From an uncultured Bdellovibrionales bacterium (GTDB lineage Bacteria > Bdellovibrionota > Bdellovibrionia > Bdellovibrionales > UBA1609), in assembly GCA_937958795.1 (NCBI GenBank), contig CALGNA010000002.1:1-32666 (forward strand): 32,666 nucleotides of DNA. Reading direction: 5' to 3'. A program made the translations under genes and the position numbers. Below the pieces are notes generated by a model, which saw nothing but the letters and a program-made list of their open reading frames with translations, did no database searches and was not told where the DNA came from. Below, piece by piece: positions 1,695-25,368 of this stretch. Position 1 is the stretch's first letter. Every line of letters begins with the position of its first letter.

Positions 1695-2774
1695 TTGCCT
1701 CAAACAATTACAGGTCAAAACGACAGCTTATTTGATTCAAAAAAATTTGATTCAAGAAAAAAAGATCATATTTTGTATTCTACATCAAAAGAGTCGCAAT
1801 TTGACTCTTTTAAGTCAGCATCTGAGCAGATTCAGTTGTTGCCTACGGCCTTTCCTGAAATAAATTTAAATCAAGTTAAGTTAAATCAAATACTACTAGG
1901 TGAAAGCTTTTCATCTCCACACTTTATTAGCTCCATGACTGGAGGCCACGAGTCCGGTTTTAAGACCAATGATGTATTAGCATCATGTGCTGCTGAGAAA
2001 AACTGGCTAATGGGAGTTGGGTCACAGCGCAAAGAACTAGCTGATTCTAGTTATGCCAAAGAGTGGACTGATATTAAGAAAAAATATCCAAAATTAAAGT
2101 TAATGGCTAATATTGGTTTGTCTCAACTTATAGAGGTTGGTTCTGAACAGATTGAGAGGCTTATTGATTCATGTCAGGCGATAGGGGTTTTTGTTCATTC
2201 AAACCCTTTGCAAGAAGCTGTTCAAAAAGAAGGGACACCAAATTTTGAAGGTGGACTCAAGGCGCTAGAGGCATTATGTGCCAAATCTTCTGTTCCAGTT
2301 GTTCTCAAAGAAGTTGGCTTTGGTATTACGAAGCGTGATTTATTAAGAGTAAATAATTTTGGATTAGCTGCGGTAGATATTTCAGGTGCCGGTGGGACAC
2401 ATTGGTCGAAAGTTGAAGCTTTAAGAGATTCTACAAAGAGTTTTCACTACGATTTAGGAATGTCTTTTAATAGATGGGGGCAAACAAGTGCTCAGATACT
2501 AAATGATGTGAGTTCTGAGGGTTTAAAGTTAAATTTTGATTTATGGGCCAGTGGTGGAGTAAGGTCAGGAGTTGATTCTTGTGCTTTACTTGCTGCTGGT
2601 GCTCAAGCAGTAGGGGTTGCATCGCCATTAATGAAGGCGGCACTTGCAGGGCCTGAGAATTTATTACAATTAATGAAGTTATATGATGAGCAGTTAAGAG
2701 TATCTATGTTTAATCTGGGTGTATGCAATGTTAAGTCTTTGAAGGATAAAAGCTTATGGAAGTGGAAGGGATAG
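1695..2774 (+). CDS. fni: isopentenyl-diphosphate delta-isomerase, type 2 (FMN-dependent)
   Basis: SSMTGG and GAGGTHW motifs and a TIM-barrel-like glycine pattern typical of IDI-2. TTG start preceded by GAGGAG. It sits first in a mevalonate gene set. Confidence 0.85.
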   Translation: MPQTITGQNDSLFDSKKFDSRKKDHILYSTSKESQFDSFKSASEQIQLLPTAFPEINLNQVKLNQILLGESFSSPHFISSMTGGHESGFKTNDVLASCAAEKNWLMGVGSQRKELADSSYAKEWTDIKKKYPKLKLMANIGLSQLIEVGSEQIERLIDSCQAIGVFVHSNPLQEAVQKEGTPNFEGGLKALEALCAKSSVPVVLKEVGFGITKRDLLRVNNFGLAAVDISGAGGTHWSKVEALRDSTKSFHYDLGMSFNRWGQTSAQILNDVSSEGLKLNFDLWASGGVRSGVDSCALLAAGAQAVGVASPLMKAALAGPENLLQLMKLYDEQLRVSMFNLGVCNVKSLKDKSLWKWKG

Positions 2775-4102
2775 ATTACGAAGAGTACTTTAAGGGCTTT
2801 TCTAAGTTAACTCGTAAAGAGCGTTTTACTCGTCTTATTATGATGGGTGTTCTGAAAAAAGAAGACGTTGCTGCAATTCAGAAAACGAATTGTATTTTTG
2901 AGAATGATTTGGCAGAAAAATTTATCGAGAACTCACTAGGTTATTTTATGTTACCTATCGGGGTAGCGACTAATTTTAATATTAATGGTAAAGATGTAGT
3001 CATTCCAATGGCTGTAGAAGAAACTTCTATTATTGCAGCTGCAAGTAAGACGGCACGCTGGGTTCGAAAGCACGGTTCCATTAAGACTGAAATGGTCGGT
3101 AATGAAATTATTGGCCAAATGCAGTTTTCGGATATTAAAAATGAAGAGACCTTTATAGATTTAATAGAAAAAAATAAATTAAGTTTAATAGAAAAAGCAA
3201 ACAAAAAGGTCGCTTTTGGCCTTGTGAATCGAGGTGGTGGTGTTCGTGATATTCAATGTAGAAAAATTGTTCCGGATTCTACTTTAGAGGGTGGAGATCC
3301 TCATTCTAGTTTTGTTGTTCTTCATGTTTTGATGAATGCATGTGATGCCATGGGAGCTAACATTGTAAATCAAGTGTGTGAGTTTTTAAAGACTCCCATT
3401 TTTGAACTTACAAACCAAGAAGCTTCAATGTGCATTCTATCAAATTTAACAGATACAAGGCTTACTAAGGCTACAATTGAGCTTGATGGTTTAGATGAAG
3501 AGTTAGTTGAAAAAATTGAAAAAGCTTCTTACTTTGCAGAAAGAGATCCTTACAGAGCGGCTACACATAACAAAGGAGTTATGAACGGAGTTGATCCGAT
3601 TATAATTGCTACCGGTAATGATTGGCGTGCAGTAGAGGCTGCAGTTCATGCGTATGCAGCGCAATCAGATCAGTACAGAGTTGTGACGAGATGGCGAAAG
3701 GTAGGTAAAAATGGGCTTAGGGGAGAATTTTTAGCTCCTATTCCAGTAGGCACGGTAGGTGGAGTTACGAACTTACACCCTTATGCACAGACCGCATTAC
3801 GAATGATGGGTATCAAAAAAGCAGATGAATTATCTCAGATCTGTGCAGCTGTTGGGTTAGTTCAAAACTTAGGTGCTTTAAAGGCCTTAACGACTGTGGG
3901 TATTATTGAAGGGCATATGAAGCTTCATATCAAAAACTTAACATTAAGTGCTGGGGCCAGTGAGGAAGAGGTTCCAGCCGTTCAAAAAAAATTAGAAGAA
4001 ATCTTGAGATTAACAAAAAGAATCTCTTTATCTAATGCTAAAGACGTTTTAAGTGAAATCAGAGGGTCCAATAGAGTTAGACCTATAGAAAATAGAATTT
4101 AG
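2756..4102 (+). CDS. mvaA: hydroxymethylglutaryl-CoA reductase, class II
   Basis: PMAVEETSIIAAAS, DAMGANIVNQ and GTVGGVT blocks are characteristic of class-II HMGR. Overlaps the fni 3' end by 19 nt. Confidence 0.9.
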   Translation: MEVEGIDYEEYFKGFSKLTRKERFTRLIMMGVLKKEDVAAIQKTNCIFENDLAEKFIENSLGYFMLPIGVATNFNINGKDVVIPMAVEETSIIAAASKTARWVRKHGSIKTEMVGNEIIGQMQFSDIKNEETFIDLIEKNKLSLIEKANKKVAFGLVNRGGGVRDIQCRKIVPDSTLEGGDPHSSFVVLHVLMNACDAMGANIVNQVCEFLKTPIFELTNQEASMCILSNLTDTRLTKATIELDGLDEELVEKIEKASYFAERDPYRAATHNKGVMNGVDPIIIATGNDWRAVEAAVHAYAAQSDQYRVVTRWRKVGKNGLRGEFLAPIPVGTVGGVTNLHPYAQTALRMMGIKKADELSQICAAVGLVQNLGALKALTTVGIIEGHMKLHIKNLTLSAGASEEEVPAVQKKLEEILRLTKRISLSNAKDVLSEIRGSNRVRPIENRI

Positions 4103-4109
4103 ATTTAGT

Positions 4110-4952
4110 ATGTCTGAAGCTATATTAAAAACAAAAGTATGCAGTAAGACATTTTTTTTAGGTGAGTACGGTGTTTTGACCCATGGAAGGGCTATTGTTT
4201 ATGCCCACGATCCCTTTTTTTTAAATGAAAACATACAGCTAAAATCAAAAGAGACAGAGCTAGCCTTTACTCAGTTTCATCCAAAAAGTCCTGCTGGTCT
4301 GTTGTTGGAAAAGTACAAAAAAAAATCTGGGATTGTTTTTAAAGACCCTCATGATGGGGTCGGTGGTTTTGGAGGTTCAACAGCAGAGTTTTTGTTAGTT
4401 GCAGAAAGTTTGGGTTTTTTAGGGACTGGGACAGATGAAAATATTCATTCTATTTGGAAAAAATATTTAAGCCTCCATCTTGGTGTAAAACCAAGTGGTG
4501 CAGATGTAGCAGTTCAGGCTAAATCAATATTTATGGGTAAGGGTTTATATCTATTTTGTAGTACTCCCTTTAAGGTTGAAAAGTTAGATTGGCCATTTAA
4601 AGAGCTTACAATAAGTGTTTCACATACAGGGCATAAGCTTAAGACACATGAGCATCTAAATAAATTAAGCAGTAAACTAAACCCAGGTGCGTTTAAGCAG
4701 GTTGGAGAACATGTGGATAAGGCTGTGGAAAGTGCTTTACAGGCGCTTAAAACAGCAGATTTGGGCTTGTTAAAAGAGGCTTTTTTGATGCAAGAAAATG
4801 TATTGGTAGATAATGGGCTTATTTGTAAAAACTCAATCAGTCTTCTGGAGGAACTTAGGATAAACCTAGCTCATAATAATGAGGTCGTTAAAGCCTGTGG
4901 GGCTATGGGGAGTGATACAATTCTGTCATTCCACAACATTAAGAGCTGTTAA
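4110..4952 (+). CDS. mvaK2: GHMP-family kinase, probable phosphomevalonate kinase (short form, 280 aa)
   Basis: N-terminal KTFFLGEYGVL (PMK-like GEY motif rather than the GEHAV of mevalonate kinase), GHMP phosphate-binding loop GGFGGSTAEF, and pathway context. The assignment PMK versus another GHMP kinase is by motif only. Confidence 0.6.
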   Translation: MSEAILKTKVCSKTFFLGEYGVLTHGRAIVYAHDPFFLNENIQLKSKETELAFTQFHPKSPAGLLLEKYKKKSGIVFKDPHDGVGGFGGSTAEFLLVAESLGFLGTGTDENIHSIWKKYLSLHLGVKPSGADVAVQAKSIFMGKGLYLFCSTPFKVEKLDWPFKELTISVSHTGHKLKTHEHLNKLSSKLNPGAFKQVGEHVDKAVESALQALKTADLGLLKEAFLMQENVLVDNGLICKNSISLLEELRINLAHNNEVVKACGAMGSDTILSFHNIKSC

Positions 4953-5062
4953 GTAACTATCGCTAAGTAGTAGTTATGCCTATCGTATTGCCAAGATTGA
5001 ATTAAGAAAAACTTATTATTCAAGGTCTATTTGTCAAAAAGAAAGGTCTTAAATTCAAATTT

Positions 5063-6349
5063 TTACTTTTTTGCCAAGCAGGTGTTTCCTATATCAGATG
5101 ACGAACTTGTAATAGTAATATTAAATTCACCATCAACATTGCTATGCTTCCAGGGTTTTTCCCCTCCAGCATTTAAATAAATATCTGTTCCATTTCCTTT
5201 AATTGAGCAAGAAGTATAGGGCTTAAAGTACTTTCCAATATAATGGTTGTATTTAGGGAAAAGATTATCGTAAAAATAAAGACCAACATGAAAATTTTCT
5301 TCTTGTAAGTCTCTAAGTCCATTAATTTGGACATTATACCACGTTTCTTTTTCTGCAAAAAAAATACCCGTAATCAAGAAGGTCCAAAGCAGTGGAAACA
5401 TGAGTGGGAAGATTAACTTTTTTTGATCCCACAACAGATTTAGAAATATTTATATCTATTTCTCCCGTACCGACGTATGTTACTTTCAAACTATTTGTAT
5501 CAAAAAAATAATTAAAAAATCTGTTGCTAATATAAATTGAATTTGATTCTGATAGATCTAAAAATGCAATTTGAGTAGTTGGGAATGTATCTTCAAGAGA
5601 GTCTTCATTGTAAGAGTATTCAGAAACTTCAATTAATATGTAGCCAGACTCAGAACCATGAACTGTAAGACTTGTCTTTGTTTCTTCAGCAGGGCCAGAA
5701 ATCTTATTTGTAAAGTTAATAACTTTAGGCTTGTTACTCATGACAGCAGTAATTTTAGACTCCTTTGTCTCGTCTAAAGAGAGAAATTCAATATTTTCTT
5801 TTAAATGCTTCTCTCTCACTAGAAAGAAAACATTAAAACCCTTATCTTTCGAATATTCATTAAAGAAATAATCTGAAAAATAACTACTATCAAATATGGA
5901 ATAACTATAGACGTTTAAAGGAAGATTATCTGGTGCATTTATAAAAAACTTATTTCTATACAATGCTTGTGTGCGCCAAAGTTCGTATTTTTCATTAAAA
6001 GAACCACTAGAGTTATAAACGCTTAATTGAGATGGATTAAGATGATAATTACTTTGTCCGTTTTCATCAAGAATGTTCAAGAAGCCTTCGTATATTTTAC
6101 CATCAATAAAATTATTTACTTCAAATCTAGGTGTTCTGATGTCAGAGCGATCATATGGAGGTTTAAAAGATAATAAAGAAGGTTGATTAACGGAAGTGAC
6201 AATCTTAGAGCTAGTGCTACTACTTGAAAGTATATCAGATTTATATAAAATATCGCTTTTGATTGGGCTTAAATCACCATCTATTGATGAAGCTAAATTT
6301 CCTAATAAACTATAGATACAAATGTAGGTAAGATTTTTATAAACTTCAT
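5063..6349 (-). pseudogene. secreted protein of unknown family, reading frame broken twice (true pseudogene or homopolymer assembly errors)
   Basis: AAGGAG sits 6 nt upstream of the ATG at 6349, but that frame stops after 15 codons (TAG at 6304-6302). A different frame is open from 6371 to 5334 with no canonical start before the TTG at 6080. The ATG frame resumes as ORF 5434..5063. The shift points coincide with a 5-nt run (6334-6338) and an 8-nt run (5357-5364; a 7-nt run lies at 5418-5424). The repaired product would begin MKFIKNLTYICIYSLLGNLASS, which is signal-peptide-like. Confidence 0.5.
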
Positions 6350-6604
6350 TAGATCTCCTTAGTATGGTATTCTATGTTCATGCTAAATTTAAACTATAAG
6401 TAAAGGTCTGGGATCGACAAGATCTCTCTTTCTAATATACTTAAGTTTTACCTCTTTTTTGTGATTTTAGAGTTTGAGTTTTAGGTGGAACCCTTATTTT
6501 GAATATTACTATAGTCAGCCGGGTGGATTCTAGTTAAGTCTGTGATGAAGTCCTTTGACTTCGATTCTAATATCTACAATTCTTTTTGAAAAAATGGAGA
6601 TATT

Positions 6605-7576
6605 ATGAGGACTTGGTCGGCTGAGGCTCCTTCAAATTTGGCTCTTATTAAATATATGGGAAAATCAGATGTTTCCCAAAACCAGGCAGACAACCCTAGT
6701 TTGTCTTGGACCATGAATCACTTGAAAACTCGAGTGGAAATACGCCCTCAAAAGGTGCCTTTGGATTCGTGGGGACCTTTGGTCGGTTCACCAGAGTATT
6801 CTATTAAGTTATCAGGAAAAGCCGAGTTGAAGTTCTTGGATCATTTTCGATTTTTGAAGGAAAAATGGGGGCTTACAGGGTTTTATAAAATATCTTCTGG
6901 AAACAATTTCCCATCTGACTGTGGTCTAGCAAGTTCTGCCTCAAGCTTTGCAGCACTTACAAAGGCAAGCTTTGAAGTTGCTAAAGAGACGAGGCCTGAT
7001 GTTGAATTGAGTCCTTCAGACTTACCTTATCTTAGTCAGGCGGGGTCAGGTTCATCATGTCGATCTTTTGTAAAGGACTGGTGTTTGTGGAATGGAGATT
7101 CGATAGGTCCAGTTGAGCTTCCAAATAAAGACCTCATTCATCAAGTTATAGTGGTTTCCTCTGGCTTTAAAAGAGTCTCTTCAAGCCAGGCCCACTTAAA
7201 AGTTAAATCCAGTCTGTTGTATGAGGGTCGAAACCATAGGGCAAGGCTAAGGCTGGATAAGTTAAATACTGCGTTTAAAAATCATGATTGGGAGCAGGCT
7301 TATCAAATCTGTTGGGCCGAGTTTATGGACATGCATATGCTGTTTGAAACTGCTCAGCCGCATTTTAGCTATTTTACCCCTGATACATGGGTCGTTCTTA
7401 ATGAAGTACGTGAGTATTGGAGGAAAATATCAGATGGTCCTATTGTAACTATGGATGCTGGTCCTAATGTGCATTTGCTCTATAAAAAAAATCAAAAGCC
7501 TATGGCCAATCAATTTAGAAAAAAGTTTGAATCCAAGTTTCAAGTCCTGGGTACAGATCAAGCTGTTGGCTTATAG
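6605..7576 (+). CDS. mvaD: diphosphomevalonate decarboxylase
   Basis: APSNLALIKYMGK N-terminus, GLASSASSFAAL GHMP loop and GSGSSCRS motif typical of MVD. GGAGA Shine-Dalgarno upstream. Confidence 0.9.
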   Translation: MRTWSAEAPSNLALIKYMGKSDVSQNQADNPSLSWTMNHLKTRVEIRPQKVPLDSWGPLVGSPEYSIKLSGKAELKFLDHFRFLKEKWGLTGFYKISSGNNFPSDCGLASSASSFAALTKASFEVAKETRPDVELSPSDLPYLSQAGSGSSCRSFVKDWCLWNGDSIGPVELPNKDLIHQVIVVSSGFKRVSSSQAHLKVKSSLLYEGRNHRARLRLDKLNTAFKNHDWEQAYQICWAEFMDMHMLFETAQPHFSYFTPDTWVVLNEVREYWRKISDGPIVTMDAGPNVHLLYKKNQKPMANQFRKKFESKFQVLGTDQAVGL

Positions 7577-7578
7577 TT

Positions 7579-8493
7579 ATGGGGTTTGAAAAATCAATTT
7601 ATGGAAAATGGGTTTTAACTGGAGAACATGCTGTATTAAGAGGAGCCGGAGCTCTTGTTTTTCCTTATAAAAAAAAGAAAATAAGAATTCAGTATGAAAA
7701 AACATCAAAGTCTCTTTGTGCAAACTTTTCAGGTCCATACGGTCAGTCTTATGAAAATTTATTCTGGGGCGTTGTAGAAAGAGCTTTGCATAAAATAAAT
7801 TTAAATACAGAAGATCTAACGGGTCATTTAAATTTTGAAGCTGATTTAACATTAGGTGGAGGACTTGGTGGTTCTGCCGCTCTTTGTGTTTCTATTTCCG
7901 AGGTTTTTGTTGAACTTGGGTTTATTGAAAAAAATACTCAGTTTGAATTCTGTAAAAATCTTGAGGATGGGTTTCATGGAAAAAGCAGTGGGGTTGATAT
8001 TGCTGTGGCGTTAAGCTCAGGGTCCCCATTGTATTATAAAATGGACATGGAAAAAACTCGACCATTAGAGATTGAATGGTTTCCTCCCATTACTTTAGAA
8101 AATACAGGTCTAAAAGGTTTTACTTCAGAGTGTGTTAAAAAAGTACAAGAGTTAATAATTAAAGACCCAAAATATTACTCTAACATTGATACTCAAATGA
8201 ATGAGGCTACTGAGTGTGCTTATAAATCTTTATCAAGCTTAGGTGAGAATGTTGATCAAAGATGGGATTTTATGAAAGAAGCATTTGATTTAGGGCAGGT
8301 TTGTTTTAAAGAATGGGGTTTAATTCCGGAGAGTCTTCAGGAAAAGATAAATGAAATTTATGATAAAGGTGCTTCAGCAGTAAAGATAACAGGTTCAGGG
8401 ATGGGTGGTAATCTTTTGGCATTATGGCCAATTGAATCACGAACGAGTCGCAATAGTTTGAGTTCTAATACAAGCAAAAATTGGGTGTTATAG
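7579..8493 (+). CDS. mvk: mevalonate kinase
   Basis: GKWVLTGEHAVLRG (MVK GEHAV motif), GGGLGGSAALCVS GHMP loop and C-terminal TGSGMGGN. The ATG is 2 nt after the mvaD stop. Confidence 0.8.
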   Translation: MGFEKSIYGKWVLTGEHAVLRGAGALVFPYKKKKIRIQYEKTSKSLCANFSGPYGQSYENLFWGVVERALHKINLNTEDLTGHLNFEADLTLGGGLGGSAALCVSISEVFVELGFIEKNTQFEFCKNLEDGFHGKSSGVDIAVALSSGSPLYYKMDMEKTRPLEIEWFPPITLENTGLKGFTSECVKKVQELIIKDPKYYSNIDTQMNEATECAYKSLSSLGENVDQRWDFMKEAFDLGQVCFKEWGLIPESLQEKINEIYDKGASAVKITGSGMGGNLLALWPIESRTSRNSLSSNTSKNWVL

Positions 8494-18559: not shown

Positions 18560-19372
18560 TTAGATCAGAGCCTTTTTAAACCCAATACGCTTAATTTGAC
18601 TATCTCTTAAGGCTTCAGTCCCTCTCAGCACAATGTCGGATTGAAAGGCTTTTTCATAACGAACATCTAAAACGTAAGCTTTCGCTAGTATTTCTATCCA
18701 AAAGGATCTGTTATTGCTTTTTTCCGTCATAACGATACTGATTGGTTTTCTAAGGTAAGTATAGCGGCTCGTAGCTACGACCTCTTTTATGATGCGCTTT
18801 GCTTCCCTAAGGTCGGCATCTAGATCAACGTGGAAGGGAATGGTGATCATCATGTCTAAGGCGCCTGCGTTTCCACTTGCAACTGCTTCAGTAATGAATT
18901 TTGAGTTAGGGATTGTGACTAAGTTATCATCAAGAGTATTAAGTCGGACGGCTCGAAGGCCAATGCTTACGATTTCTCCGTAGATGTCACCAAAGCTGAC
19001 CCTGTCGCCAACTTGAAAAGGTCTATCAAAAAGCAAAGTCAAACCAGCAACAACGGATGCTACTAGATCTTTAAGAGCAAAGCCGACAGCAACAGCTGAA
19101 CTCCCTCCAATGGCAATCAAAAGCTCTTTAGGCGGCTGTAGGACCGAGTAAACAAGGACCATTGTTCCAAAAATATAAAGACAAAAGCTCATAACAGTTG
19201 TTATCTGCAATATAATAAGTCTTTTGGTTGGAAACTGACTTTGTATATTTTTAGAAAAATGATTTAGTATTTTTACTAAAAAGCTTAAAGCGACTATCCC
19301 AATGATGAGTCCTAGGATTTTTTCGATTTTAAAAAGTTGAGCGATTTGAGAGAGCTGATTTAATTCATCCAT
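18560..19372 (-). CDS. MscS-family small-conductance mechanosensitive channel
   Basis: Three N-terminal hydrophobic helices, then GGSSAVAVGFALKDLVASVVAGLTLLFDRPFQVGDRV...LRAVRLNTLDDNLVTIPNS, the canonical MscS TM3/beta-domain signature. The start overlaps the upstream gene by 8 nt (ATGGATGA). Confidence 0.9.
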   Translation of the reverse strand: MDELNQLSQIAQLFKIEKILGLIIGIVALSFLVKILNHFSKNIQSQFPTKRLIILQITTVMSFCLYIFGTMVLVYSVLQPPKELLIAIGGSSAVAVGFALKDLVASVVAGLTLLFDRPFQVGDRVSFGDIYGEIVSIGLRAVRLNTLDDNLVTIPNSKFITEAVASGNAGALDMMITIPFHVDLDADLREAKRIIKEVVATSRYTYLRKPISIVMTEKSNNRSFWIEILAKAYVLDVRYEKAFQSDIVLRGTEALRDSQIKRIGFKKALI

Positions 19373-21980
19373 AAATAAAATTCTTCCGTTTTAGTGTTGA
19401 GGTCACGCTATGTTGCCATAGAGGAGAGACTGAATAGTAGGCACCTTTTTTTTCAAGGTAGTTTTTTTCAGTACATACTTTAAGTGCATTTCGTATAAGA
19501 TCTTTATTTAGGTCTGTTGATATGAGTATTTCTTCCATAGTTAAAATTTTATGTCTTTCAATGTTAGAAAGAACAAAATAAAAATCATCGGGAAGGCCTT
19601 GGATGATTTCGACTCGGTCTCTTGGAAGTCCTGCTGCAACTTTTTTAGATCCCTTGTATTTTAAACTTGATAGCCAAACGGGGATTGCAACTTTTGGGTT
19701 GCCATTTGATTCTTCCCATAAAATTCTAAAGTATTTATTTTCTACAAATAAATTGGTTTCAGGATTTTTCTTATGTCCTGAGGGGTAGAGACTGTGATCA
19801 AAACTTAATGTGTATTCAGATAACTGATGGGAATGTAGGATATAGCTTTTGAGCTCTTCTTCGGACCAGTGCTTGAGGTTGTAAACATGATGAAAGTGTT
19901 CCGTGTTTTTATAGACGGACTGTAAAAATTCCCATGAATTATTATGAAAAGATAAGACCCAGAAAAATTGATTTCCAGATTCTTCAATTTTTTGAATCAT
20001 GCTTTGTAAGACATTAAATCCACCTACCTTAGATAGGAAAAGATTTTCAGCGTTATCTAGTAGTATAATTTTTTTCTTAGAAGATTCTGCTAGACTTAGT
20101 ATGTCATGAGAAGTTAACTCCTGTTCAAGATCTTCAACGGTATCTATTCGAGTTCGAATAGAGTGGTAAATACAATCAAGGTTTTCATTTTCAGTTGAGA
20201 GTAGTTTTTTTAATAAGTGGGTTTTTCCTATGCCTCTTTCGCCTTTTAGAGCAATAACATGATCGTCTGAGTTGCTATTAGACCAAGACTTTACATGATC
20301 TTTAATGCTGCTAAAGATTTCTTTTTGTTGTTGTGAAAATTTGTCATAGGGTTTTTCTAAGCTATCGGAATTTGTAAAGAGTTTGGTGTACTCTTTTGGT
20401 AGAGCTTGATTTTTAGGAGTTTGGGTAGGGTCTTCTTTTTGTAGTCCTTCAATTTTTTTTCTAAATATTTCAGCCGATATTTTTTTAAACCACTCGAACT
20501 GTTCTAGCCAGCCAAAGCATTTGGAGAATAAAAAGTGAAAACTAACAATTCCTAGTGCAGGAAAGCAAAAGATCCAAGCAAGAAAACCTGAAAGGAGTCT
20601 GTTGATGATAGGGTGAGTATTTGGTGGGAAAATGCTAAGAAGAGATTGTTTAAGTTCCTGCCTCCATCTAAAGCCCATCCACAATAGAGTCACTATGAAC
20701 ATAAATGAAAGGAGCTTAGATGCCCAAAAATAGAGAAGTCCTTTTCCGGCTGCTGTCTGGAGTGTGTAGAGGAGAAGGGTTGTTAAAAAGAAAAAGCCAC
20801 TTATAAAGTGAGCTGTCCATTTGATCTTTTTTGCGTCTACATTTTGTAAATTTCTTCGAAACAATTGTCCTGATAAAATTTGATTAACTAAAATACGAAC
20901 AATTCGATAGCAGGCATAAAAGATAAGATAAGGAAAAAGTAAACTGAGTTCTTTTGCATGAGACTGCTTTATGAGTTCTTGTACGATATAAAAGTAAACG
21001 CCAAATGATACCCATGGGATATGTGGGGAGAGCCTGTTAATCCATAAGGCTTTTTTTCTGGACTTGGGATCACGGTAGGCTTTTCTCTGATAAGAGGCTC
21101 TTTTATTATTAAGCCAAGTGGAAATATGAGAGAATTTTCTAAAAAATAAAAAACCTAGGTAAATAATAAATATGAAGATAAGGATATCAAAAGAAATAAA
21201 GAGAATCCCCTTAAATCCTTTTTGGAATTCAGCTTTGTAGGACTGAAACCTCGATTTAAAAAGACTGATCCATCTAAAAGGTATTGAGAAGAATTCTAAA
21301 ATAAGGTCTTGAGGGTAGGACTGAGAAATCCCCAAAAGAGTTGCCTCTTTAGAGTTGATTAAGTTGGCAATAGTTTTAGATCTTAGCTCTGAAGAGCCAA
21401 TAAAAAGTTGGCTTCTTAAGACACTTATTTTTTCAGATTCAGTTTCTCTATCTAGATAGTAAGTGTTCAGAGTGTTTTCAAAGTTTTTTAATGTTTCATT
21501 TTGGATTTGAGATAGCCCTGATTTTTTATGTTTATTTTTTTGAGTCAGGATTTTTTGGAATACAGGCGACAAAGAAATATCATCTAGGTTTTGAGAATCT
21601 AATTTTTGTAAAATTCTCCAAGGCTTTGAATAGGTATTGTAGGGGGTACTGTCGTTTTCAGTGTTTTGATTGTGGGTCGCTTGATTTTTATTATCATAAT
21701 CTTCAGTCTGTAAGTTTTCGATTTCTGAGTTGAGGTTCTGATACCTATCTTCTAGAGATTTCCATTTTAATTGCGATTCTTGAATAAGTGAATCGAGTTG
21801 AGAAAGTAAATTTTGTGAGATGGAGTTATGTTCAGTTTGAGGAGCGGTCTGTTCTGTTGGGTTTACATATTCTGTTTCAGGAGGTGCATATTCATGGTAA
21901 GAATCCTCAGAATAAGCATGAGTCAACGAAGGAAAGAGCATGTTTAATAAAAGACATAATAAGATGTAGAGTGCTTGCAT
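19365..21980 (-). CDS. membrane-anchored P-loop NTPase: signal peptide, periplasmic coiled-coil/low-complexity region, polytopic membrane domain, cytoplasmic AAA/STAND-like ATPase, C-terminal winged-helix-like module
   Basis: Signal peptide MQALYILLCLLLNMLFPSLTHA. Q/N/E-rich heptad-like segment at aa ~55-95. At least 5 hydrophobic helices at aa ~257-485. Walker A GERGIGKT (aa 580-587, nt ~20220-20243), Walker B KIILLDNAE (aa ~637-645), SNGNP motif, and C-terminal LKVCTEKNYLEKKGAYYSVSPLW reminiscent of Arch_ATPase/DUF234 wHTH. Family assignment is by eye only. Confidence 0.7.
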   Translation of the reverse strand: MQALYILLCLLLNMLFPSLTHAYSEDSYHEYAPPETEYVNPTEQTAPQTEHNSISQNLLSQLDSLIQESQLKWKSLEDRYQNLNSEIENLQTEDYDNKNQATHNQNTENDSTPYNTYSKPWRILQKLDSQNLDDISLSPVFQKILTQKNKHKKSGLSQIQNETLKNFENTLNTYYLDRETESEKISVLRSQLFIGSSELRSKTIANLINSKEATLLGISQSYPQDLILEFFSIPFRWISLFKSRFQSYKAEFQKGFKGILFISFDILIFIFIIYLGFLFFRKFSHISTWLNNKRASYQRKAYRDPKSRKKALWINRLSPHIPWVSFGVYFYIVQELIKQSHAKELSLLFPYLIFYACYRIVRILVNQILSGQLFRRNLQNVDAKKIKWTAHFISGFFFLTTLLLYTLQTAAGKGLLYFWASKLLSFMFIVTLLWMGFRWRQELKQSLLSIFPPNTHPIINRLLSGFLAWIFCFPALGIVSFHFLFSKCFGWLEQFEWFKKISAEIFRKKIEGLQKEDPTQTPKNQALPKEYTKLFTNSDSLEKPYDKFSQQQKEIFSSIKDHVKSWSNSNSDDHVIALKGERGIGKTHLLKKLLSTENENLDCIYHSIRTRIDTVEDLEQELTSHDILSLAESSKKKIILLDNAENLFLSKVGGFNVLQSMIQKIEESGNQFFWVLSFHNNSWEFLQSVYKNTEHFHHVYNLKHWSEEELKSYILHSHQLSEYTLSFDHSLYPSGHKKNPETNLFVENKYFRILWEESNGNPKVAIPVWLSSLKYKGSKKVAAGLPRDRVEIIQGLPDDFYFVLSNIERHKILTMEEILISTDLNKDLIRNALKVCTEKNYLEKKGAYYSVSPLWQHSVTSTLKRKNFIYG

Positions 21981-22099: not shown

Positions 22100-22711
22100 T
22101 TAAGTATCAAGTATAGGCTGATTTACGAGTTCTGTGGGCAAGTTGAGTGGGTTTGTTATGGGTTCTTTTGTACCAATATGATGGTTTAACTCATTGCTTA
22201 GCGTATTTAAAAAGCTAAAAACTTGGTCTTGAAAACTGAGGTCTTTGTTTTTAGTAATGGATTTAAACTTTAAGACTTGCTGGTCCCAAAAATTTTCAGG
22301 AAGATTTTGTAAAAGCCAAATATCAGGTAGTAAGCAAAGGAACTTATCTTTTGGAGCAAAATAGATAAGAAGACCATTCCTAAATTGAGTGGCTGTCATC
22401 TCATGTGTGTAAAAAAGAGACCTTGCCTCGTTGTTGAGTCTTGTGAATTTTAGTTTGCTTTCTTTTTGACTAAAGAAATGTTGAATCGTTTGTATTAGTA
22501 TAAATAAAATAACTATAATTGTAAGAATAAAGGGAGTTTTCCAAGAGATAAGAAGTAAGAGGAGTAGAAGAAAAGCTTCATACTTATAGATTTGCAAAAT
22601 AGAAGAGTGAGAGTTGTTTTTAGAAATAGCAACTCTGATTTGAGTTGGAATATTCTTTTCAATTTCAGCTATAAGGCCTTCTAGTTTCTTTGAGTCTACA
22701 TTGTGTTTCAT
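22100..22711 (-). CDS. membrane protein, probable second TPM-like partner of the lemA-TPM operon
   Basis: N-terminal LEGLIAEIEKNIPTQIRVAI resembles the start of the third gene of lemA-TPM-TPM clusters. Hydrophobic helices follow (FLLLLLLLISW..ILTIIVILFILI). TAATG overlap with the upstream TPM gene. Confidence 0.5.
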   Translation of the reverse strand: MKHNVDSKKLEGLIAEIEKNIPTQIRVAISKNNSHSSILQIYKYEAFLLLLLLLISWKTPFILTIIVILFILIQTIQHFFSQKESKLKFTRLNNEARSLFYTHEMTATQFRNGLLIYFAPKDKFLCLLPDIWLLQNLPENFWDQQVLKFKSITKNKDLSFQDQVFSFLNTLSNELNHHIGTKEPITNPLNLPTELVNQPILDT

Positions 22712-23499
22712 TACCAGCCTCCGGAGGCGCCGCCTCCACCAAAACCACCACCCCGACCAAAGCCGCCAAATCCACCACCACCAGATGGTCTGTGTGTTGG
22801 AAAGTTTCTGTCTTGATAAGAAGAGTTAGGGTTGTATGTTCCAGAAGAGTTAGGGCCGTGCCATTGGTAGGAACTGCCAGATTGTTTCTGGCTCATATAA
22901 AACTGGTAGAGCATCATAGCTAAGAAAAGCAAAAGAATGAGCAGTTCAATTTTGGACATGCCCATGTTTTCATTTTGAGGAAGAGCTCCGGACAGTCCGC
23001 TTAGTTCTTCGGGTGTTATTCCCAGTTGATCCGTAACTTTAACAAGCCCAACAGAGATGCCATCAGTATAGTTCCCTGATTTAAAGTAGGGCTTAAGACT
23101 TTCAATAAGGCTGTAGCTAAAGTAATCCGTTAGTTGGCCTTCTAAACCGTATCCAACTTCAAGTCTCATTTTTCTATCGTTAAGTGCAACAAGAAGTATG
23201 GCCCCTTGATCTTCTTTTTCTGATCCAATTTTCCACTTTTCAGCCGCTTCAATACCAAGGTTCTCAATGGGGTAATCTTCAAGACTTGGCAGGGTCCAAA
23301 TAACTAACGTTACTTTATTAGAGTTAAAGAGTTTTATCAGAATAGTATTGAGTTCGGCTTCTCGCTGATCATCAATAATATTGGCAGTATCTAAAATAAG
23401 CTTTTGACCTAAATCAGGAATTATTGGTTGTGCAAAAAGACTTCCTGATACAAGGAGAAGAAAGCCTATTGCAAATATAAGTTTTAGTGTATTTTTCAA
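22711..23499 (-). CDS. TPM-domain protein (YgcG-like) with C-terminal TM helix and Gly-rich tail
   Basis: Signal peptide, then the TPM pattern: ILDTANIIDDQ..., WKIGSEKEDQGAILLVALNDRKMRLEVGYGLEGQLTD. TM helix ELLILLLFLAMMLY. The tail ends GGGGFGGFGRGGGFGGGGASGGW. Confidence 0.75.
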   Translation of the reverse strand: MKNTLKLIFAIGFLLLVSGSLFAQPIIPDLGQKLILDTANIIDDQREAELNTILIKLFNSNKVTLVIWTLPSLEDYPIENLGIEAAEKWKIGSEKEDQGAILLVALNDRKMRLEVGYGLEGQLTDYFSYSLIESLKPYFKSGNYTDGISVGLVKVTDQLGITPEELSGLSGALPQNENMGMSKIELLILLLFLAMMLYQFYMSQKQSGSSYQWHGPNSSGTYNPNSSYQDRNFPTHRPSGGGGFGGFGRGGGFGGGGASGGW

Positions 23500-23535
23500 T
23501 GTTGTAATGTTTAAATTGAGTTTAGTGTTATATTT

Positions 23536-24129
23536 TTAAAGATCTAAATCAATTTTTGGAACTTCTCTTTTCTCAGGTAAGGCCGTGAAGTTTTCTTTTG
23601 GCTCTAACTTCAGAATATACTTGGCTGTTAAGTTAGTAGGGAAGAAGCGAACCTGTTTGTTGTATTTTCCTACGCTCTCAATGTAACGGTTTCTAGCTGT
23701 TGAGATTCTGTTTTCAGTTCCTTCGAGTTGAGCTTGTAGAGCTTGAAAGTTTTGTAAGGCTTTTAACTCAGGGTATTTTTCAACCGTTAATAAAAGTCTT
23801 GAGAGACTACCACTTAATTTGTCCTGCGCTGCTTGAAACTTCTTCATCATAGCTGGATTTGAAAGGTCATCTGTTGAGAGTTTAATAGAAGTTGCATTGG
23901 CTCTAGCGTTGATCACAGATTCAAGAGTTTCTTTTTCGTATTTTGAAGCACCTTTTACGGTCTGTACCAGCTGAGGTACCATGTCGGCTCTTCTTTGATA
24001 CTGGTTTTCTAATTCTGACCAGGCTGATTTTACGTTTTCATCTAAGCCCTGCAGGCTGTTATATCCGCAGCTCGTTAAATTAAGAGTAAAACCAATCCAC
24101 ACTAGAAACATAAAGGCCATTTTATTCAT
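23536..24129 (-). CDS. lemA: LemA-family protein
   Basis: N-terminal anchor/lipobox-like LTSCGYNSLQGLDENVKSAWSELENQYQRRADMVPQLV plus YPELKALQNFQALQAQLEGTENRI, the typical LemA signature. Confidence 0.85.
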   Translation of the reverse strand: MNKMAFMFLVWIGFTLNLTSCGYNSLQGLDENVKSAWSELENQYQRRADMVPQLVQTVKGASKYEKETLESVINARANATSIKLSTDDLSNPAMMKKFQAAQDKLSGSLSRLLLTVEKYPELKALQNFQALQAQLEGTENRISTARNRYIESVGKYNKQVRFFPTNLTAKYILKLEPKENFTALPEKREVPKIDLDL

Positions 24130-24366
24130 GCTAAATTCCTTATAAATATTAATAGACTGAAGTAAGTAAGCCTAATCTAGGACAAATAAGCACATTTTTA
24201 AAGCATAATCTTGATGCAGAGACAGGAAAGCTTGTGTTGTTTGATTAAAATTTATTTTAGCGATGTTCTATGTCTTGAAAAATGGCCTATAGATAGTGAT
24301 AACAGCTGCAGGTAAGGTTTTTAAAGCGTTAATCGTGTAAAATTTATAAAATCCATGGAGGGGTTA

Positions 24367-25368
24367 ATGAGTTCATCAGGGAAGAGAATACTGTCTGGAG
24401 TGCAAAACTCATGTTTTTTTGGAATATTAGGATTCATAGCTTCTTTCCATATTATGAGCTTTCATGCTTTTGGGGAGACACATGAGGGGGCTGTTTTAGG
24501 GGAAAATATTCAAGTTTCTGTTATGGAGATTTCAGAAGCTGAGGCTTTGGCAGAGATTAAAACTGTAAGAATAGTTCAGCATGGTGTGGCTTCTGCATTA
24601 GAAGATAAAACAACAGTATTTGAAACTCCAGATTTAACAGAGCAAGTCGGGTGTGGATTGCAACAAGATATCAAAGAGAGTGAGATATTAGAAGGCCAGG
24701 CATCTGAAAACGAAACTGAAAGTAGGAGCTCTGAGCCTGAAACTAACCAAGAAGATGTATCAAGCCAAGAAGGCCCGTCTTCCGTATCGGATTCGTCATC
24801 AGCTTCAAAAAAACCAAATCTAGTGACTTACTCATCCATTGAAGGTTTGGGTGATATCGATGAGATTATAACTGTTGGTGAAAAAGTCATCAATGTTATT
24901 TCTAAATCTAAATCGACAGTTGAGTTTGAGAAGTCACCTGTAGCACATGTGATTCCAAAGCAGGCAAAATGTTGGACTGAGTTTTCGAATTGGTTGGGTC
25001 CAAAATTTTATCGAGTTCAATTTGATTTTTCTAAAAGAGGAATTTTTGGCAACAGGCTCAATATTGTCAATGCCACGCTTATTTTAAGTTTTATGTATGG
25101 AGGTCAATATAATGGTAAGGGGCAGTATTTACAAAATGTTATGGTTTATCCCCGAATCAATCGTGTCGCTCCCTTTTGGAGTTTAAAGTCTAATGTCGAG
25201 TTATTTTTACCAAGTAACTACGGATCTAAAAGTGATCCAATTGCAGGTTTACAGTTAAAAGTCACAAATCAATACTCTACTTTTTTGAGACGAGTCGTAG
25301 CGGCAAGGACACTCGCCATTAAGGGTAACGGGGATGTGGTAGATGATTATATTGAAATTGAGCCATAA
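24367..25368 (+). CDS. hypothetical membrane-anchored/secreted protein with acidic Ser/Glu-rich linker
   Basis: GGAGGGG lies about 4 nt upstream of the second ATG (24367), so I prefer it to 24355. Hydrophobic N-terminus FFGILGFIASFHIMSFHAFG, an E/S/D-rich stretch (ESRSSEPETNQEDVSSQEGPSSVSDSSSAS), and a C-terminal ~190 aa with no motif I recognise. Confidence 0.55.
   Translation: MSSSGKRILSGVQNSCFFGILGFIASFHIMSFHAFGETHEGAVLGENIQVSVMEISEAEALAEIKTVRIVQHGVASALEDKTTVFETPDLTEQVGCGLQQDIKESEILEGQASENETESRSSEPETNQEDVSSQEGPSSVSDSSSASKKPNLVTYSSIEGLGDIDEIITVGEKVINVISKSKSTVEFEKSPVAHVIPKQAKCWTEFSNWLGPKFYRVQFDFSKRGIFGNRLNIVNATLILSFMYGGQYNGKGQYLQNVMVYPRINRVAPFWSLKSNVELFLPSNYGSKSDPIAGLQLKVTNQYSTFLRRVVAARTLAIKGNGDVVDDYIEIEP

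Follow-up and report, generated by a model that had tools for sequence, protein, structure and literature searches.

The window analyzed here is a 32,666-nucleotide (nt) stretch from an uncultured Bdellovibrionales bacterium (contig CALGNA010000002.1 of assembly GCA_937958795.1), with a G+C content of ~36%. On its minus strand, a gene for an 871-amino acid (aa) membrane protein with an AAA+-like cytoplasmic part, which we call BIG, is followed by a gene for a 270-aa MscS-family channel. The original prediction had described the two open reading frames (ORFs) as overlapping by 8 nt, and re-reading of coordinates and sequence gave the same arrangement; the minus strand at the junction reads ...TTT ATT TAT GGA TGA over ATG GAT GAA... 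The pair and the parts of the large protein are laid out as follows.

19365..21980, minus strand: BIG, gene of the 871-aa membrane AAA+-like partner (ORF)
18560..19372, minus strand: gene of the 270-aa MscS-family channel (ORF, PF00924)
19365..19372, minus strand: 8-nt overlap ATGGATGA, with the stop codon of the ATPase gene within the first MscS codons
21915..21980, minus strand: signal peptide, aa 1-22 (hydrophobic N-terminal segment; Sec-type in the family)
21207..21914, minus strand: periplasmic helical domain, aa 23-258 (long helices in the AlphaFold2 (AF2) model)
20505..21206, minus strand: membrane domain, aa 259-492 (hydrophobicity scans, AF2)
19866..20315, minus strand: AAA+ P-loop core, aa ~556-705 (Foldseek, sub-threshold Pfam matches)
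19626..19865, minus strand: helical lid, aa ~706-785 (AF2, conserved columns)
19368..19625, minus strand: C-terminal winged helix, aa ~786-871 (AF2, order H-E-H-H-E-E-H)

We collected relatives of the large protein by an exhaustive HMMER profile search. A word-index search with the single protein had given one homologue, P0002, at 35% identity, and a word-index search with a 130-sequence alignment gave nothing new, probably since candidates were drowned in hydrophobic words. The profile matched 2,380 clusters at E ≤ 1e-3 and 429 clusters (50% identity) at E ≤ 1e-30. Of the 150 best-scoring clusters, nearly all were 750-1,080 aa long, and the match spanned the juxtamembrane periplasmic region, the membrane domain and the C-terminus. 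An MscS gene overlaps the 3' end of the P0002 gene by 8 nt, and three further members looked up singly were also followed by MscS; these homologues were 23-36% identical.

Loci were then sampled with a degenerate DNA pattern for [FY]F..LW....GNP..A...W, which lies inside the ATPase gene only, in one genome per species (GTDB representatives). The scan gave at least 119 loci. One locus, in a Pirellula metagenome-assembled genome (MAG), held no homologue of the large protein and was treated as a chance pattern match. Loci counted as evaluable when ORF and hidden Markov model (HMM) analysis found the 3' end of the ATPase gene, and there were 118 of these, including the window and four loci fetched earlier. 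By a strict definition (131 nt overlap to 24 nt spacing, phmmer E < 1e-20 against the window MscS), 110 of the 118 had a same-strand MscS gene directly 3' of the ATPase gene. The MscS was cut by the locus edge, yet visible, in L043, L049 and L111; its ORF was artificially extended upstream in the high-GC loci L084 and L106; the pair was frameshifted in L061; and L059 and L082 had no room left after the ATPase gene. Altogether, linkage was positive in 116 of the 118 loci, with zero counter-examples. Preferential linkage to MscS, for which a neighborhood survey had been named beforehand as the test, was therefore found.

The overlap of the two genes is also a family trait. Among the 110 strictly adjacent loci it measured 8 nt in 52, 11 nt in 23, 14 nt in 6 and 4 nt in 5, giving a start/stop overlap of one of these lengths in 86 loci, and the commonest overlap sequence was ATGAATGA (33 loci). 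The co-translation proposed from the 8-nt overlap in the window has its counterpart in most of the sampled loci. These data support an obligate, translationally coupled pair, and, on sequence grounds, they establish the two genes as co-transcribed.

By approximate counts, made by hand from record titles, the pair occurs in ~50 species of Bdellovibrionota, ~16 of Alcanivoracaceae, ~17 of other Gammaproteobacteria, ~5 of Betaproteobacteria, ~15 of Myxococcota or 'Deltaproteobacteria', ~5 alphaproteobacterial MAGs and a few species of other taxa. No conserved third gene was found beside the pair across the sampled loci. Neighbors were common only within lineages: 16 Alcanivoracaceae species have the pair, and subsets of up to ten have common neighboring genes. 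The annotated neighbors were miscellaneous housekeeping or regulatory genes. Several non-Bdellovibrionota MAGs (L041; L050, Gallionella; L062, Chromatiaceae; L088, Methylomonas; L116, Thiobacillus; L031, a Flavobacteriaceae MAG) carry copies that score as high as Bdellovibrionota copies against a profile dominated by Bdellovibrionota, which could reflect horizontal transfer or mis-binned contigs.

We next consider the cytoplasmic part of the large protein. The motifs that had been read from the single sequence were all located at the expected positions, and the active-site region can be listed as follows.

aa 580-587: Walker A, GERGIGKT
aa 638-643: Walker B, IILLD-N (IILLD at 638-642)
around aa 679-680: sensor-1 region
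aa 758-762: SNGNP motif
aa 841-855: YLEKKGAYYSVSPLW, a C-terminal winged-helix segment

The SNGNP motif opens a longer lid motif, S-x-G-N-P-[RK]-x-A-x-x-L-W (aa 758-769), in which P762 and W769 are invariant; the lid also holds H718. The winged helix has an invariant H810, a conserved tail K-N-F-I-Y-G and conserved basic residues in its putative recognition helix (V-R-x-A-L-K). An AF2 model built on 75 family sequences reached a mean predicted local distance difference test score (pLDDT) of 87.5 and a predicted template modeling score (pTM) of 0.75, compared with a pLDDT of 42 for a model on two sequences. Values were mostly >90 in the core, lid and winged helix, and the core was predicted as a Rossmann-like alpha/beta fold with strands at 575-580, 602-607, 637-642, 672-679 and 698-701. 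The top Foldseek matches in the PDB were Cdc6/Orc1 structures (1fnn, 1.4e-7; 2qby) over ~390 columns. Further matches included ORC4, RuvB, Avs4, NLRs and RFC, with the archaeal PF01637 ATPase 2qen at rank 19.

No curated Pfam or NCBIfam model scored above its cut-off on the 871-aa protein. AAA_14 reached 25.7 bits against a cut-off of 27, AAA_22 and nSTAND3 were also just below their cut-offs, and NCBIfam matches were far below. Among 17 diverse members, AAA_22 matched the P-loop in 15, and NPHP3_N, NACHT, NB-ARC, AAA_16, nSTAND3 and ATPase_2 matched as well; some members had winged helix-turn-helix (wHTH) matches at the C-terminus (MarR_2, HTH_DeoR, HTH_11). Because the AF2 model, the Foldseek matches and the Pfam matches in members agree, the cytoplasmic part is, as modeled, an ORC/Cdc6- or STAND-like AAA+ core with a lid and a winged helix, and the NTPase and winged helix first suggested by the motifs stand. 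As to a STAND architecture, the protein has no C-terminal repeat sensor (TPR, WD40, LRR) and no known N-terminal effector, and it ends at the winged helix.

To ask what the nucleotide site can do, we counted residues over 130 family members, with the Arg-finger and sensor-2 positions assigned by motif and secondary structure, not by inspection of a structure.

K586 (Walker A): K in 127/130; K in the window protein
D642 (Walker B): D in 127/130; D in the window protein
position 643 (catalytic acid): D or E in 95/130; N in the window protein
position 697 (Arg-finger candidate): R in 70/130; H in the window protein
position 717 (conserved Arg): R in 100/130; S in the window protein
position 763 (sensor-2-like, in GNP-R): R in 79/130 and K in 14/130; K in the window protein
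H718 (lid): 124/130; H in the window protein
H810 (winged helix): 130/130; H in the window protein

The lid residues G760, N761 and P762 occurred in 129, 122 and 130 of the 130, their equivalence to the STAND GxP motif being putative. Most family members look hydrolysis-competent. The window protein has Walker A and the Walker B Asp, and it lacks the catalytic acid, the candidate Arg finger and the sensor-2-like Arg of AAA+ enzymes. Nine of the ten best-scoring members, including the window protein and its closest relatives (P0010 is the other one), are non-acidic at 643, and these nine are also mostly without Arg at 697 and 763. The window clade therefore looks like a pseudo-ATPase or binding-only subclade. 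Given these missing residues, a role as a nucleotide-binding switch is likelier for the window protein than one as an active ATPase: it probably binds nucleotide and hydrolyses it poorly.

The partner is a small MscS channel, with three transmembrane (TM) helices at aa ~18-117, a beta domain at 118-175 and a C-terminal alpha/beta domain at 176-262. PF00924 scored 75.9 bits (cut-off 20.2), and phmmer against solved chains matched MscS, MSL1, MscK, MscM and YnaI. The C-terminal vestibule domain gave 16.2 bits with PF21082, under the cut-off of 21, and phmmer aligned aa 9-231 to Thermoanaerobacter tengcongensis MscS (3t9n). The NCBIfam equivalog models for MscS, MscK and MscM were not reached (64.9 bits vs 991 for the MscK model, 61.5 vs 500 for the MscS model), which places the 270-aa protein in a distinct MscS subfamily. 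BLASTP against the E. coli MscS sequence aligned aa 85-161 to 96-172, covering TM3 and the beta domain. This alignment puts V94 and F98 at the places of the gate residues L105 and L109 of E. coli, in keeping with an MscS-type pore-lining TM3 (Gly/Ala-rich face, hydrophobic gate residues, two TM helices before it), and the predicted hydrophobic gate of the window channel is intact.

The channel is far better conserved than its partner. Between the window and P0002, the MscS proteins are 62% identical and the large proteins 35-36%, and the partner channels of 101 other loci have a mean identity of 51% to the window MscS. Along 102 partner channels, TM1 was variable, and the cytoplasmic start of TM2 (R51, I54, Q56, T59) was conserved; TM3, the beta domain and the C-terminal motifs TSRY.YLRKP and KAYVLDVRYEKAF were strongly conserved. 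This pattern is compatible with a conserved cytoplasmic interface. A second MscS paralogue lies 3' of the paired one in L019, L028, L029, L054, L073, L078 and L130, and after a ~480-nt gap in L063. Most of these second copies have diverged much further, with phmmer E-values to the window MscS of 1e-8 to 1e-19; the L054 copy, at E 4e-64, is nearly as similar as the first.

The front part of the N-terminal half of the large protein was predicted to face the periplasm. Its hydrophobic aa 1-22 look like a signal peptide, as had been proposed, and a Sec-type signal peptide was predicted in 106 of the 125 family members starting with Met. The region that follows (aa 23-258) is hydrophilic, with Q, N and E making up 26%, and long helices are predicted in it, in keeping with the earlier description of a Q/N/E-rich stretch. 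The AF2 model runs from the signal peptide through a disordered segment (aa 23-48) and long periplasmic helices (to aa ~253) to membrane helices (256-492) and an amphipathic helix. Across the family, the periplasmic domain is 77 to 459 aa long (median 327); its distal part is variable and its juxtamembrane part conserved (R200, D225, E229, P234, G255, G258). No Pfam match fell in this domain among the 17 diverse members. Long-form members (~1,000-1,040 aa, e.g. P0014, P0025, P0058 and P0113) have a recurring Cys-Pro motif shortly after the predicted signal-peptide cleavage site.

At least five hydrophobic helices had been counted in the membrane domain, and we found five by a single-sequence scan and six at the family level, all within aa 259-486. 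The six segments are 261-280, 319-335, 343-370, 393-410, 415-434 and 468-486; pLDDT across the membrane domain was 90-97, and at the family level the last segment has K/R-rich loops on both sides. The domain showed no relation to the partner MscS and no internal repeat. The original prediction had taken this half of the protein for a split-off front end of MscK or MscM, an idea that found no support here. None of the 17 members matched MscS_porin (PF12795) or MscS_TM (PF12794) at E ≤ 0.01, hhalign against E. coli MscK gave probabilities of 1.1% (whole family profile) and 0.15% (TM-region profile), and the TM-region profile (aa 190-544) matched nothing in the PDB, though MscK, MscM and YnaI chains are present there. 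We thus rejected a detached MscK/MscM front end at the sequence and profile level. The resemblance of the front half of BIG to large MscS paralogues appears to be an analogy of layout at most.

We analyzed how far the pair extends beyond bacterial chromosomes. In tblastn searches, the 871-aa protein matched 3 of 72,556 plasmid records and zero phage, the three being alphaproteobacterial plasmid or chromid copies. The two plasmids opened (Novosphingobium pLA3 and a Caulobacter plasmid) carry the ATPase gene followed by one or two MscS genes. With the window MscS as query against the same 72,556 plasmids, the same three ATPase-linked records ranked first (36-46% identity), and the fourth match was in the haloarchaeon Salinirubellus (34% identity). 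On this plasmid (Salinirubellus sp. SYNS196, NZ_CP147842.1; L131, 4937-6738), a gene for a 331-aa soluble protein precedes, with a 4-nt overlap, an MscS gene of the subfamily to which the window channel belongs. The soluble protein aligned to family profile positions 573-826, from the AAA+ core through the lid into the winged helix, with an hhalign probability of 96.4% (E 1.1e-9). The archaeal homologue is without TM helices or a periplasmic part. It keeps GGFE, W..YL and S-R-G-N-L-G-V-A-x-x-V-W, and its Walker A is degenerate (GDPFSGRES). A tblastn search with it against the plasmids found only itself. Judging by these homologies, the pairing of module and MscS reaches Archaea.

A 1,692-aa SLC12-like permease ends in a C-terminal part distantly related to the module. 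In Bacteroidota (L003, 3951-9029; L127, 2974-8038; L128, 3886-8593), the module is fused to, or adjoins, AA_permease genes, the fused proteins being SLC12-like amino-acid/cation permeases ~1,700 aa long, and Na+/H+ exchanger genes adjoin these SLC12-like permease-module loci. In some Bacteroidota-type contigs the module lies just 3' of the permease gene, which may be split by frameshifts. The association with SLC12-like permeases is a second, independent transporter partnership of the module. Since the module occurs as a soluble archaeal protein beside MscS and in fusion with SLC12-type permeases, the cytoplasmic AAA+-like/winged-helix part is the constant element and is portable between partners. 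The company it keeps is that of predicted ion or solute transport proteins.

The genes around the pair in the window are core chromosomal housekeeping genes, including mevalonate-pathway genes, MutL, MiaA, RelA/SpoT, RecD2, a LemA/TPM operon and a SulP-STAS transporter. This gene content and the closest relatives alike suggest a Bacteriovoracia-like bacterium within the Bdellovibrionota. The genes closest to BIG on its upstream side are as follows.

23536-24129, minus strand: LemA gene, upstream of the ATPase gene
22711-23499, minus strand: TPM-domain gene, upstream of the ATPase gene
22100-22711, minus strand: gene of a 203-aa membrane protein, in the same operon as LemA and TPM

This operon (22100-24129, minus strand) lies directly 5' of the ATPase gene, 119 nt away, and it was not conserved beside the pair in other loci. 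The mevalonate-pathway cluster (1695-8493, plus strand) holds an FMN-dependent isopentenyl diphosphate isomerase (IDI)-like gene and genes for HMG-CoA reductase, diphosphomevalonate decarboxylase and GHMP kinases; the pathway is unusual in bacteria, yet reported for Bacteriovorax and relatives. Two ORFs had no Pfam match: 24355-25368 (plus strand, 337 aa), with a hydrophobic N-terminal segment and a Ser/Glu-rich region, and 4110-4952 (plus strand, 280 aa). Searches of the window for Rfam families, including riboswitches or other RNA elements, and for tRNAs found none.

We propose, giving it about an even chance, that the pair is a dedicated two-subunit channel in which a nucleotide-binding partner regulates an MscS pore. 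The small MscS-type protein would form the pore, and its partner, on the envelope side of the inner membrane, would combine a helical domain exported to the periplasm, a multi-helix membrane domain of a novel kind and, in the cytoplasm, an ORC/Cdc6-like AAA+/lid/winged-helix module. The two proteins would be synthesized in matching quantities and form a complex, plausibly with seven copies of the partner surrounding an MscS heptamer. The periplasmic and membrane domains would provide the input, and the cue may also come from the cytoplasm. The nucleotide state of the AAA+ module would control pore opening, and the release of solutes or ions would be regulated instead of purely tension-driven; in the window clade the module would act as an ATP-binding switch. 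A role in osmotic, ionic or envelope homeostasis seems most likely. Support for this proposal comes from the linkage to MscS, the reciprocal plasmid matches and the archaeal pair, the association of the module with other transporters, the AAA+ fold and the conserved, gate-competent channel. The housekeeping context, namely the core-chromosome window, the lineage-stable neighbors in Alcanivoracaceae, the near-absence from plasmids, the absence from phages and the merely generic P-loop matches in PADLOC, supports it as well.

Several points weigh against the regulated-channel proposal. The parity of the membrane spans does not add up, as a predicted signal peptide followed by six spans would place the ATPase outside the cell. 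A periplasmic N-terminal domain and a cytoplasmic ATPase need an odd number of spans, so one segment must be re-entrant or interfacial, with 319-335 and the Pro-containing 468-486 as candidates. Judged by its motifs, ATP hydrolysis cannot be essential to the partnership, because the window clade is without the catalytic residues and the archaeal Walker A is degenerate; with hydrolysis dispensable, a switch fits better than a motor. Physical contact of the partner with MscS is something we infer, the winged helix could be a DNA-binding output instead of a gating part, and the suggested osmotic or ionic role draws on known MscS biology and on the module's company, not on a phenotype.

Three other explanations each fit less well than a regulated channel. 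The matches of members to NACHT, nSTAND3, NB-ARC and NPHP3_N in Pfam, and to Avs4 and plant and animal NLRs in Foldseek, raise the idea of a conflict or abortive-infection module, in which a STAND-like NTPase would sense an invader and open an MscS-like pore that depolarises or kills the cell; the varying length of the N-terminal domain and a BrnT toxin gene near one locus point the same way. However, the variable domain goes to the periplasm, which is not where phage proteins appear, and C-terminal repeat sensors are absent. PADLOC gave weak, generic P-loop matches only (the best among the 17 members being mad8, E 5e-06) and none for MscS. Defense genes do not turn up repeatedly around the pair, and gene order holds steady within lineages, as in the 16 Alcanivoracaceae species. 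The pair's presence in 3 of the 72,556 plasmids and zero phage, the core housekeeping context of the window and the high conservation of the supposed effector also speak against such a module. On the PADLOC, plasmid/phage and synteny evidence, we rejected a defense system or mobile element as the leading explanation, and we regard a conflict function as improbable.

A second alternative reverses the direction of signaling, with MscS sensing tension and the ORC/Cdc6-like ATPase and winged helix tethering or regulating DNA at the membrane. Its appeal comes from the top structural matches, which are the DNA-binding initiators Cdc6/Orc1, from the MarR_2 and HTH_DeoR matches in some members and from the conserved basic V-R-x-A-L-K in the putative recognition helix. 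Yet the winged helix of a STAND- or ORC-type NTPase often helps to sense the nucleotide state and to form oligomers instead of binding DNA, and the loci showed neither a conserved target gene nor a conserved operator context. The module is also fused to SLC12 transporters, where regulation of transport is simpler, and a gate-competent pore is conserved. A DNA output would therefore be rather surprising.

The third alternative is an assembly or quality-control factor, an AAA+ protein that would insert, oligomerise or turn over MscS while staying outside the working channel, much as ExeA/GspA helps in assembly of the secretin. AAA_22, the Pfam family of ExeA/GspA, was the commonest Pfam match (15 of 17 members), the G-x-P-R-x-A/I motif resembles that of the ExeA/GspA clade, and the layout of membrane anchor and periplasmic domain is similar. 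Canonical small MscS channels nevertheless assemble unaided, and translational coupling with conserved overlaps suggests stoichiometric, not catalytic, amounts. The loss of hydrolysis residues in whole clades, and of Walker A in the archaeal form, is a poor fit for a working chaperone, and we consider this function unlikely. Finally, although short overlaps of adjacent genes are common in compact bacterial genomes, the idea that the two genes are mere neighbors with incidental packing is effectively refuted by the linkage in 116 of 118 loci without a counter-example, with order, strand and overlap kept over several phyla while other neighbors change, and by the archaeal pair.

A more far-reaching version of the regulated-channel proposal is tentative, and we find it possible but doubtful. 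An MscS heptamer would be ringed by an equal number of membrane-embedded ORC/Cdc6-like AAA+ subunits, and a nucleotide-dependent ring under the vestibule would open or lock the pore on a periplasmic signal. This would define a new class of prokaryotic channel, a bacterial counterpart of the ATP-sensitive potassium (K-ATP) channel. The module would then be a general regulator, portable from one ion transporter to another: MscS in bacteria and archaea and SLC12-type permeases in Bacteroidota.

MscS channels are textbook proteins gated directly by membrane tension, and to our knowledge any further control described for them comes from domains fused to the channel itself. We know of no AAA+ partner described for any MscS-family channel. 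Full-text literature searches gave no description of an ATPase-MscS pairing or of an AAA+ partner for an MscS-family channel, and the large protein has no model of its own in Pfam, NCBIfam or PADLOC, which agrees with the earlier statement that the pairing belongs to no characterized system. In a comparative study of marine Bdellovibrionota (PMC8067016), the sole mention of mscS is as a marine-enriched gene. In public records the large protein goes under 'AAA family ATPase', 'ATP-binding protein' or 'hypothetical protein'. Both components come from known superfamilies; their combination and an AAA+-type subunit for MscS appear undescribed, and there is a substantial chance that the pair represents a new class of regulated channel. 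If so, an obligate, separately encoded AAA+-type partner would be a new way of controlling MscS channels and a new job for the ORC/Cdc6-like ATPase fold. The pair is found in more than 119 species, from Bdellovibrionota and Myxococcota to Alcanivorax, Halopseudomonas and Novosphingobium, with a soluble form in a haloarchaeon. Its cultured carriers include Alcanivorax spp., Marinobacterium stanieri, Halopseudomonas pachastrellae, Mangrovimicrobium sediminis, Novosphingobium pentaromativorans and Bacteriovorax isolates, which makes the hypothesis directly testable.

Among known systems, MscK (KefA) and MscM, the large MscS paralogues of E. coli, likewise add to an MscS core a signal peptide, further membrane helices and an extensive helical domain in the periplasm, and MscK gating is modulated by K+ beyond tension. 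In the BIG-MscS pair, by contrast, the extra parts are on a separate polypeptide with a cytoplasmic AAA+ module, and the channel is a minimal three-TM MscS. ORC/Cdc6 proteins and PF01637 ATPases (PDB 2qen) share the order of AAA+ core, helical lid and C-terminal winged helix, and the lid motif G-N-P-R-x-A-x-x-L-W lies at the place of the ORC/Cdc6 sensor-2 motif G-D-A-R-x-A-x-x-L-L. They differ from BIG, which is membrane-embedded, has a periplasmic domain and is paired with a channel, and which in the window clade is without the catalytic residues.

BIG resembles STAND NTPases (NACHT, NB-ARC, Avs) in its P-loop core, in a putative G-x-P-type lid motif and in a winged helix whose invariant H810 is a candidate counterpart of the STAND nucleotide-sensing His, and it has weak Pfam and Foldseek matches to them. 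The input domain of BIG is nonetheless periplasmic, and the protein ends at the winged helix, lacking both a C-terminal repeat sensor and any known effector domain. In type II secretion, ExeA/GspA is an inner-membrane P-loop ATPase of the AAA_22 type that has a periplasmic domain and works with a partner membrane protein. BIG is also membrane-anchored, with a periplasmic domain, a membrane partner and AAA_22 as the commonest Pfam match in its family, whereas ExeA/GspA has the opposite orientation, with its ATPase at the N-terminus, one TM helix and a C-terminal peptidoglycan-binding domain, and its partner is a secretin-assembly factor, not a channel.

Nucleotide- or ligand-regulated channels, in which a nucleotide-binding regulatory part sets pore opening, include bCNG (MscS with a fused domain binding cyclic nucleotide monophosphates), RCK/KTN-gated K+ channels and eukaryotic K-ATP (Kir6 with the ABC protein SUR). 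Their folds are unrelated to those of the BIG-MscS pair. The nearest functional analogy is K-ATP, in which a separate membrane NTPase subunit surrounds and regulates the pore subunit.

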